DNA of 30,339 bases from a virus. Lineage: Duplodnaviria > Caudoviricetes. Below, one piece after another: positions 830 to 30,339 of the stretch. How positions within the stretch are numbered: position 1 is the stretch's first letter; each line of letters starts with the position of its first letter. A program made the position numbers and the translations under genes. The stretch covers positions 1 through 30,339 of the IMG/VR virus record IMGVR_UViG_3300012921_000065; one strand, written 5' to 3'. Under the pieces are notes generated by a model, which was given only the letters and a program-made list of their open reading frames with translations, was not told the origin of the DNA and ran no database searches.

Positions 830-857
830 TTGTTTTTCGCTTGGGTTGTGGTAGAAG
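830..857 (+). promoter_or_regulatory. putative sigma70-type promoter for the structured RNA
   Basis: TTGTTT(830-835)-N16-TAGAAG(852-857) with extended -10 TG; TGTGGTA core shared with 4430-4436. Confidence 0.35.
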
Positions 858-859
858 AT

Positions 860-1095
860 GCGCGCGGGGCTTGGCGACATTCCCTGCTCGGACGCGGCGG
901 CGAAAGCCGTAACGGTCACTGGCGGTCCCTTGCAGGCTCCGGTCTCGCGAGCGCCCTGCAACCCGTTTAATCCCGTAGCCGGAGCGCACCGGCCCGCGTC
1001 GCTTTGCTCGCCCAAAGGCCGTCGAACTTGGCCGCGCGTACCGAGGTGCGCTTGGGTTAAGCGGGGTCGCTGCCTGACGTGGCGACCCCGCCACC
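860..1095 (+). ncRNA. candidate structured non-coding RNA, family unknown
   Basis: Intergenic run of hairpins including a GAAA tetraloop; the imperfect pairs are G-U on + and A-C on -. Confidence 0.5.
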
Positions 1096-1100
1096 CTTGC

Positions 1101-4390: not shown

Positions 4391-4400
4391 AGTGGCCTCC

Positions 4401-4428
4401 AAACGAAAAAACCCGCCGAGGGGCGGGT
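4401..4428 (-). terminator. intrinsic terminator
   Basis: ACCCGCC-CCTC-GGCGGGT hairpin followed by TTTTTCGTTT on -. Confidence 0.75.
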
Positions 4429-4445
4429 CTGTGGTAAGGTCGGAT

Positions 4446-4529
4446 ATGCTTTCAACGCTTGGTTTGGCCGTCGCCGCAATCGTTGCCGCGTGCCTCGTGG
4501 CTGCGCTTATCGATTACTGGCGCCGCTAG
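4446..4529 (+). CDS. 27-aa hydrophobic peptide (candidate superinfection-exclusion moron)
   Basis: MLSTLGLAVAAIVAACLVAALIDYWRR; TAAGGT upstream; fills the intergenic gap; stop overlaps the convergent stop (CTAG). Confidence 0.55.
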   Translation: MLSTLGLAVAAIVAACLVAALIDYWRR

Positions 4530-26537: not shown

Positions 26538-27026
26538 TCATGCGCGCGCACTCGCTGGCACGCGGCGCAACGCGGGCGGGATATCGGGCATGTCGTCGAG
26601 CGGTGCGATGGCAGGCGCTGCAAACACTTTTGCGACCGTCGCGGGCGAAACCGTGGCCTTTGGCGTGTCGGGCGCGCGGGCGATGCGCTCCGGCTCGCTG
26701 TACGGCCCGGCCAAAATCCCGCGCACGTCGGCATAGGTCGGCAAATCCTCGTCGCGCTCCAACGGCAATTCCGATTGCTCGCCAATGCCGACTGCATCGC
26801 GGTATAGCGCGAGAACCTCGTCTTCCTCTTTGCGCGCGTCTTCCGCCATTTTGCGCAGCTTGACGACTTTGCGCATGATCTTGGTATCGAAGCCGTTGCC
26901 TTTGGCTTCCGCGTAAACCTCGCGAATGTCAATTGCGAGATCGGCTTTTTCCGCCTCCAGACGCTCGATCCGCTCGATGAACGAGAGGAGTTTTTGCGCG
27001 GCCACGCCGGGTTGTGCTTCGGTCAT
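26538..27026 (-). CDS. gapR: GapR/DUF2312 nucleoid-associated protein with C-terminal extension
   Basis: LLSFIERIERLEAEK...IREVYAEAKGNGFDTKIMRKVVKLRK...LALYRDAVG. Confidence 0.9.
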   Translation of the reverse strand: MTEAQPGVAAQKLLSFIERIERLEAEKADLAIDIREVYAEAKGNGFDTKIMRKVVKLRKMAEDARKEEDEVLALYRDAVGIGEQSELPLERDEDLPTYADVRGILAGPYSEPERIARAPDTPKATVSPATVAKVFAAPAIAPLDDMPDIPPALRRVPASARA

Positions 27027-29082: not shown

Positions 29083-29397
29083 ATGGCCTCACACAAAAAA
29101 ACTAAAGACGCCTACGAAAACGCCGTCGCGAGGGCAATCGGAATCGAGGTTGTCAAATGGCGCGAAAAGCGCGGACTTAGCCGCGAGAGCCTTGCGCCCG
29201 TACTGCGCTGCACGATGAGAACGGTAAAAGCGTATGAATTGGGCGCCCGGCGATTTTCGATAGCCGATATTATGAGGCTCGCGCGCACGCTGAGCGTGCA
29301 ACCCGAATCCCTGCTTATAAACGTGCCGCCGCCGCCTGCTACAATTCCCCTGGCCGTGCTTTCTGAAACTGGCCAAGTAAAAAAAATCGACGACTAA
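29083..29397 (+). CDS. CI-like XRE-family repressor (no peptidase domain)
   Basis: WREKRGLSRESLAPVLRCTMRTVKAYELGARRFS...LARTLSV HTH_3; flanked by operator pairs. Confidence 0.85.
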   Translation: MASHKKTKDAYENAVARAIGIEVVKWREKRGLSRESLAPVLRCTMRTVKAYELGARRFSIADIMRLARTLSVQPESLLINVPPPPATIPLAVLSETGQVKKIDD

Positions 29398-29859: not shown

Positions 29860-30339
29860 ATGCCCGTGACCTCAATCAAAGCATTCAACGCAGACATGAC
29901 GTGTCGCGGCTTCCAATTCGAGCCGGGCAAGACCTATGAAGTCGCGGGCAAGATCAAGGCTTGCGAAAACGGGTTTCACGCCTGCCCCGTCGAGCATCAT
30001 CCGCTGTCGGTTCTCGAATGCTACCCGCCGACCAGCCGCTTTTACGAAGTGGTGCAGGACGGCGATACGCATGCGGACGGCACAAAGCTGGCGTCGGCGA
30101 AAATCACGGTCGGCGTCGAATTGCACTTGAGCGATCTGGCGCAGCGCGCAGTCAAATGGGTTTTCGACCGCGCGAATTGGAAAGGCGGACCTGTCGCGAC
30201 GGGCGACAATGAAGGCGCGACGGCCAGCGGCGACCAGGGCGCGGCGACGGCCAGCGGCACCCGGGGCGCGGCGACGGCCAGCGGCTGGCAGGGCGCGGCG
30301 ACGGCCAGCGGCGACCAGGGCGCGGCGACGGCCAGCGGC
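29860..30339 (+). CDS. DUF7666-like protein with 9-aa repeats (3'-truncated)
   Basis: Missing from the ORF track (no stop in window): MPVTSIKAFNADMTCRGFQFEPGKTYE...CENGFHAC...; then ATASGxxGA repeats. Confidence 0.85.
   Translation, partial: MPVTSIKAFNADMTCRGFQFEPGKTYEVAGKIKACENGFHACPVEHHPLSVLECYPPTSRFYEVVQDGDTHADGTKLASAKITVGVELHLSDLAQRAVKWVFDRANWKGGPVATGDNEGATASGDQGAATASGTRGAATASGWQGAATASGDQGAATASG
30217..30339 (+). repeat. 27-bp coding tandem repeat
   Basis: GCGACGGCCAGCGGC at 30217, 30244, 30271, 30298 and 30325 with variable hexamers. Confidence 0.92.

Follow-up and report, generated by a model that had tools for sequence, protein, structure and literature searches.

A candidate antisense small RNA in the intergenic gap ahead of a provirus holin gene

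The lysis genes and the gap between them

The window, that is, the whole stretch of 30,339 nucleotides analysed here (positions 1 to 30,339 of IMG/VR virus record IMGVR_UViG_3300012921_000065), is a provirus record whose portal, capsid, adaptor and tail genes, as recognised by Pfam and PHROG, all lie on the - strand; at the lysis end this strand carries, in order, an endolysin-like gene, a 66-aa gene, a gap, the holin gene and a 34-aa membrane-type ORF. The features flanking the gap are the following.

1303 to 1749, - strand: endolysin-like gene, 148 aa (PHROG 873 endolysin, E 3e-49)
1101 to 1301, - strand: 66-aa conserved gene (10 homologues, 64-80% identity)
819 to 837, - strand: start region for translation of the holin, comprising an A-rich stretch (837-828) and the SD-like GAGG (827-824)
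363 to 818, - strand: holin gene, 151 aa, GTA_holin_3TM family (Pfam PF11351, E 5e-13; PHROG 3427, E 2e-21)

The holin has 23 homologues besides itself, while the 66-aa protein, one of whose 10 homologues comes from Tagaea sp., falls into no Pfam or PHROG family; its structural model is a confident small alpha/beta fold (pLDDT 80), for which no fold match at E<=0.001 and, in the ESM Atlas, no match of 0.9 or more was obtained. The nearest named homologues of both proteins belong to Rhodospirillales-type Alphaproteobacteria, and the host of the provirus is therefore presumed to be alphaproteobacterial.

The gap between the 66-aa gene and the holin gene (819-1100) measures 282 nt and is the largest in the late operon; indeed, between 257 and 20393 the flanking genes are without exception on the - strand, and the next largest gap among them is 135 nt, in agreement with the unusual size pointed out in the first-pass annotation of this DNA. 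It is non-coding, all six frames scoring -0.20 to -0.55 under a codon model derived from the phage itself that gives +0.13 to +0.60 to 16 of 17 reference ORFs (the remaining one being a wrong frame); a 92-codon in-frame upstream extension of the holin ORF was rejected on the same non-coding score. The G+C content of the region is 67%, and the A-rich stretch ahead of the holin gene (837-828) is unpaired in the prediction (p>=0.97).

Two further observations concern the intergenic regions of this phage. In the gap of 135 nt (4391-4525), a hydrophobic ORF of 27 codons (4446-4529, + strand), provided with an SD-like stretch, lies antisense in the late operon and adjoins a - strand terminator with a U-tail near 4405-4430; it is possible that this ORF represents a lysogen-expressed membrane peptide, in which case another + strand unit would be located in a gap of the late operon. 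Moreover, positions 977-1020 resemble 26695-26655, in opposite orientation and within the gene 26538-27026 (44 nt, 80% similar, E 0.024), a similarity which is probably due to chance.

Promoter-like site, predicted fold and terminal hairpin

On the + strand of the gap, i.e. opposite to the late genes, the following features are predicted or observed.

830 to 857, + strand: predicted sigma-70-type promoter with +1 at 864 (matrix scan, pattern match)
838 to 847, no strand assigned: first copy of a 10-nt direct repeat, the second being at 1049-1058 (sequence)
864 to 887, + strand: predicted 5' hairpin with the GNRA-type inner loop GCGA at 874-877 (MFE of 864-1098; outer pairs p 0.5-0.96)
891 to 1000, + strand: predicted middle domain (MFE, helix list; z -1.77, 12/200; centroid poorly defined)
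962 to 1065, + strand: alternative 12-bp helix 962-973/1054-1065 with 2 G-U pairs (helix list; not significant)
1009 to 1057, + strand: predicted three-way junction of 1009-1014/1052-1057, 1016-1032 and 1036-1051 (MFE of 1000-1095)
1054 to 1096, + strand: terminal hairpin, 13 bp (1061-1091) plus a 4-bp extension (pair probabilities ~1.0)

The promoter-like sequence that had been noticed ahead of the candidate RNA is indeed present and ranks high: a -35 box TTGTTT (830-835) is followed, after a 16-nt spacer with an extended -10 TG, by the -10 box TAGAAG (852-857). The latter is devoid of the T at -7, and the site is consequently overlooked by a stock promoter scan, which requires that base; according to two published studies, the -7 T is absent from most alphaproteobacterial sigma-70 promoters (PMC8407463; PMC7703639). 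With alphaproteobacteria-like weights the site is number 5 of 60,614, and with E. coli weights number 76 of 60,614, both sets of weights being set after the site had been seen; promoters of the repressor region are also found in the top ranks under the alphaproteobacteria-like weights. The pattern TTG..TGnTAnA has its sole match in the window at 830-857, and taking 857 as position -7 sets +1 at G864, the first base of the predicted 5' hairpin. The T-rich -35 region is also accounted for by the A-rich ribosome region of the holin gene on the other strand.

As to the repressor region, a 77-nt, 70% complementary inverted repeat (28949-29025/29426-29502) flanks an HTH repressor-like gene (29083-29397), and both of its arms bear outward-facing promoter-like boxes, as if they were one duplicated promoter-operator block.

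The gap had been described as packed with helices. Each of the arms named in that description can be found, whereas their density is at the level of chance: 47 helices of at least 7 bp are present in the gap against a shuffle mean of 42.7, and 29% of 300 shuffles reach 47, because a sequence of 67% G+C yields that many. The comparison of folding energies with shuffled sequences points the same way, since the z-scores obtained, -1.25 to -1.6, leave the fold nearly no better than the shuffles. In particular, 830-1098 gives z -1.25 on the + strand (23/200 shuffles) and 0.27 on the - strand, while for 864-1098, whose ends (864 and ~1098) were picked post hoc, after the promoter-like site had been seen, z is -1.48 to -1.59 (15/200; 8/150). 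Once the terminal hairpin is taken out, these values become -0.13 to +0.85 for the region and +0.52 for 864-1098; in a sliding-window analysis, values clearly below those of the shuffles were confined to 1000-1160, and a less marked decrease was seen at 860-919 (z -2.4).

The MFE structure of 864-1098 is modular, comprising the 5' hairpin, the middle domain, the three-way junction and the terminal hairpin, and its centroid is diffuse, with an ensemble diversity that is not lower than that of the shuffles. In the middle domain, a 7-bp Watson-Crick helix (891-897/994-1000) would enclose the GAAA hairpin (897-910), the arm 930-961 and the hairpin 978-993, with a possible alternative 8-bp pairing 936-943/978-985. 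Both of these helices, together with the 12-bp helix 962-973/1054-1065, had escaped the first-pass annotation, and the three of them may permit alternative folds; the 12-bp helix is incompatible with the base of the terminal hairpin, and a second helix of its quality arises in 49 of 400 shuffles. The stretch 1000-1095, which holds the three-way junction and also takes in the terminal hairpin, has an MFE z-score of -3.08 on the + strand and -0.56 on the - strand. Among the helices originally listed, three have low probabilities in the ensemble of 857-1098 (1002-1017, p<=0.04; the closing helix at 960/1058, p~0; 1036-1051, p~0.1), and those at 1002-1017 and 1017-1033 overlap at base 1017.

The argument that imperfect pairs are G-U on the + strand and A-C on the - strand turned out to be a poor guide to the transcribed strand, because the + strand of the gap is T-rich, as it is in the neighbouring - strand genes, and an equal energy difference between strands is reached by 13% of 146 genome windows. 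The GNRA loop reported on the + strand fared better, as it was found again together with a second one at 874-877: two GNRA-capped hairpins are present on the + strand and none on the - strand, and at least two GNRA or UNCG caps occur in 2 of 322 background windows.

Loops of the GNRA type frequently take part in tertiary contacts. Along with the promoter-like site and the end hairpin, these loops are also compatible with a + strand RNA that would act in trans through its fold, whether as a decoy for a protein, by regulating host mRNAs, or as a two-state or catalytic RNA, its proximity to the holin gene being incidental; the modular multi-junction MFE, the long helices that exclude each other and a pseudoknot that may form fit such a role. 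The frequency of the 12-bp alternative helix among shuffles, the diffuse ensemble and the lack of any conservation found tell against it, and we regard it as unlikely. Still less probable is a new class of folded phage RNA, running ~235 nt from promoter to hairpin and with two GNRA-capped domains, in which the pairing 962-973/1054-1065 would compete with the terminal hairpin; such an RNA would time holin release by alternating between termination and read-through, or by binding a protein.

The 13-bp terminal hairpin at 1061-1091 is just as had been claimed, and with its extension (1054-1096) it exceeds in stability every other 45-nt hairpin of the 30-kb window, whichever strand is considered (-32.8 kcal/mol on the + strand, -29.1 kcal/mol on the - strand). 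No U-run follows it on either strand and a terminator scan makes no call there, U-runs being present at two other hairpins of this phage (near 13093-13137 and at about 4405-4430). On the - strand the hairpin begins 4 nt past the stop codon of the 66-aa gene, and its strength on that strand too is what would be expected if the gap were an ordinary spacer giving rise to no + strand RNA, made of a stabilising or pausing hairpin at the 3' end of the 66-aa mRNA, the holin ribosome region and unselected GC-rich filler. A fold at shuffle level outside the hairpin, a strand asymmetry within background and the outcome of the homologue searches (see below) argue for this explanation, which nevertheless leaves unaccounted for some 200 nt in an operon whose other gaps do not exceed 135 nt, the two GNRA caps found on the + strand only, and a promoter-like site with +1 at the start of a hairpin; neither does the - strand of the gap hold a strong holin promoter, the best site ranking 508 of 60,614. 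An ordinary spacer is nearly as likely as the antisense RNA discussed in the last section, and each of the two readings remains doubtful.

The 10-nt repeat noted at 838 and 1049 exists in both copies, which are exact; a meaning beyond chance did not emerge, an exact repeat of at least 10 nt being found in 203 of 2000 shuffles and a longer chained repeat having p 0.04-0.12, and it is probably fortuitous. A second contact, by which the repeat would target the unpaired A-rich region at the holin ribosome site, is conceivable but found no support, the duplex ranking only 22nd of 26 start regions. It might also be imagined that the repeat is a 10-bp target duplication left by a ~200-bp inserted remnant (848-1048) that interrupted a compact hairpin-SD spacer; removal of 848-1058 would indeed restore a ~70-nt spacer consisting of stop codon, hairpin, A-rich stretch, SD and start. 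Given the chance-level repeat, the lack of terminal inverted repeats on inspection and of a second copy within the window, and the absence of a similar element from 401 alphaproteobacterial genomes, such an origin appears improbable. A separate 27-nt tandem repeat is located at 30190-30324, within the DUF7666 gene at the window's end.

Known RNA families and searches for relatives

No match to Rfam 15 was obtained in the window at the gathering threshold, the best sub-threshold scores being 21.6 bits against a cut-off of 78 and 21.3 against 34.5, and the novelty of the candidate was thus not removed; ARAGORN predicts no genes, consistent with the failure to fit a tRNA or tmRNA reported earlier. 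The C4 and c4-a1b1 RNAs and IsrK (RF01695, RF03163, RF01394) are similar to the candidate in being phage RNAs that lie close to a toxic gene and are associated with short repeats, and the c4-a1b1 hairpin has a few letters in common with the terminal hairpin of the gap. C4 RNA and its targets share one strand, whereas the candidate would lie on the strand opposite to them; furthermore, RF01695 and RF03163 have no matches at E<=10 in this record, and by inspection and helix list the - strand between the repeats does not contain a full complement of the repeat, so that a C4-type RNA was rejected. IsrK was discarded as well, its weak match (760-836, + strand, 16 bits against a cut-off of 50, E 0.45) being antisense to the first part of the holin gene and not in the gap.

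The possibility of a ribozyme found no support in loose motif scans: there is one loose HDV-like match, which begins within the holin gene, and the - strand has none; no hammerhead core, in line with the failure to fit that consensus in the first-pass annotation; no group I R/S; and a pistol-like hexamer at 1058 that is accompanied, on inspection, by neither a matching first hairpin nor a cleavage dinucleotide. The lack of an Rfam match and of a known-ribozyme catalytic core in these scans also counts against an RNA acting in trans.

A credible homologue of the candidate RNA was found neither by BLAST nor by nhmmer, exact patterns or a single-sequence covariance model (R1), searches that are blind below roughly 65-70% identity. 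With blastn, the gap gave only short pieces against phages (best E 0.03, inside a coding region of a Rhizobium microvirus) and no credible match against plasmids, and blastn and nhmmer gave none over 160, then 249, then 80 loci. R1 likewise yielded no credible match over sets of 100, 13 and 100 loci, the best outside match in the unselected locus sets reaching 19 bits at a locus chosen for a 17-mer in common with the gap; it found nothing in 50 whole viral records, and in 1 of 101 proteobacterial genomes it matched at terminal-hairpin positions only. A DNA search of 401 alphaproteobacterial genomes returned pieces of 24-43 nt in 5 of them, which were taken as chance, and exact patterns in viral contigs gave 9, 2 and 8 stretches with no credible homologue among them.

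When the 66-aa gene was used as a handle in metagenome and viral contigs, only the gene itself and one relative were retrieved, and genome sets contained none (0/5, 0/401, 0/201, 0/201). In this relative (L333, identical in sequence to L336), the 66-aa homologue is 73% identical and lies behind the holin-like gene, so that the family adjoins lysis genes in both phages in which it was seen. Directly behind the homologue, at L333:2695-2780, a perfect palindrome is followed by a U-tailed terminator. L333, the only reachable relative with a 66-aa gene, has nothing like the gap or the candidate RNA; its hairpins behind the gene are in keeping with an ordinary spacer, and the different hairpin and terminator in that place speak against an antisense RNA. 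A similar upstream gap is present in none of the 13 closest holin loci among the matches listed.

A 17-nt match led, through two loci (L246 and L247), to a separate intergenic RNA family on 57-68 plasmid records. Its members (L247:363-451; L246, 367-455 on the - strand; L353-L368; alignment A4, model R2) are ~90-105 nt long, occur on plasmids and in prophages of Pseudomonas, Xanthomonas, Enterobacterales, Aeromonas, Advenella and Gluconobacter, and are predicted to form a hairpin-loop pseudoknot and a multi-way junction. In 17 aligned members, 99% of cells are paired and 13 of 24 pairs have changed on both sides (0/500 shuffles), as counted on a pseudoknotted structure drawn by hand from the same alignment; promoter-like boxes and a U-tailed terminator are recognisable by eye. 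No Rfam match was found in a scan of 12 member loci, and none of 151 sampled genomes contained the family. At 13 of 16 plasmid loci the RNA converges on an annotated gene of 143-199 aa, labelled 'heat-shock protein C' in one record; four translations of this gene look alike and have no Pfam match above the cut-off, and RNA and gene may constitute a candidate RNA-protein module. With L246 and L247 the gap has in common a 17-nt GAAA hairpin and a few following letters, while it differs in being devoid of the first hairpin and the pseudoknot loop of the family. Membership of the window in this family was rejected: model R2 gives it 8 bits (E 3.3, model positions 39-70 only) against 110 bits for the held-out L246, and the hairpin in common is therefore ascribed to coincidence or convergence. 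Strongly covarying and unmatched in Rfam, this family of plasmid RNAs may be a better lead than the RNA of the gap.

A possible antisense role and its significance

The proposal that the gap specifies a + strand non-coding RNA thus survives in part, in that the promoter-like site, the position of +1 at the start of a hairpin, the second GNRA loop and the end hairpin speak for it, whereas helix density, G-U pairs and the repeat do not. The reading that we tentatively prefer, and consider possible, is that the gap encodes a lysogen-expressed cis-antisense sRNA uncoupling the holin from leaky late transcripts. We infer transcription, both RNA ends, expression in the prophage and co-transcription across the gap.

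The sRNA, ~235 nt in length (864 to ~1098), would start from its own + strand sigma-70-type promoter and end at the terminal hairpin, covering the intergenic part of the late mRNA, with which it would pair just upstream of the holin gene. Convergent transcription, together with a ~235-bp duplex of the kind cut by RNase III-type enzymes, might cut leaky transcripts off from the holin, so that the membrane-toxic protein would be uncoupled from read-through in the lysogen, and the terminal hairpin would stop the antisense RNA from entering the upstream genes; upon induction, strong late transcription would swamp the sRNA, and lysis would thereby be delayed or be made to depend on a threshold. As the RNA would stop 37 nt short of the holin SD, we do not suggest that it masks the ribosome site directly. 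This scheme, whose every functional step we infer from known cis-antisense RNAs, is supported by the coincidence of the largest non-coding gap, the promoter rank, +1 at a hairpin, two GNRA loops and the strongest hairpin, and by the location of the candidate opposite late genes that are all on the - strand (257-20393), presumably co-transcribed across the gap. The modest fold z-scores, the missing U-run, the post hoc matrix and ends and the lack of a homologue count against it, as does a multi-domain fold that a pure antisense role would not need.

Antisense RNAs of phages have been described in comparable settings. According to passages of a review (PMC12197685), PAK_P4as15 of Pseudomonas phage PAK_P4 is antisense to the endolysin gene, with a proposed delay of lysis, and STnc6030 of Salmonella prophage BTP1 is antisense to late genes, limiting their expression without blocking induction. 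The candidate resembles the former, by description and not by sequence, in being a phage antisense RNA at a lysis gene, and differs from it in that PAK_P4as15, an RNA detected by experiment, belongs to a lytic phage and is tied to its endolysin gene, whereas the candidate is predicted, intergenic before a holin gene and located in a provirus; STnc6030, likened to it in the same way, covers a tailspike coding region and is linked in those passages to superinfection exclusion, whereas the candidate is short, intergenic and bounded by hairpins. The word 'holin' does not occur in that review. In a limited body of literature, no paper on a holin-linked intergenic sRNA was found, and six short motifs had no match in full-text papers, the alignment files and one table of PMC10690425 being outside that scope.

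The candidate RNA is a single-copy prediction; if real, it would represent a new sequence family of prophage antisense sRNA, itself a known kind of regulator. Holins must stay silent in the lysogen and be timed in lysis, and few sRNAs have been described in alphaproteobacterial podovirus-like prophages; if the antisense reading is true, the gap would provide such a prophage with a compact intergenic RNA lock on lysis.
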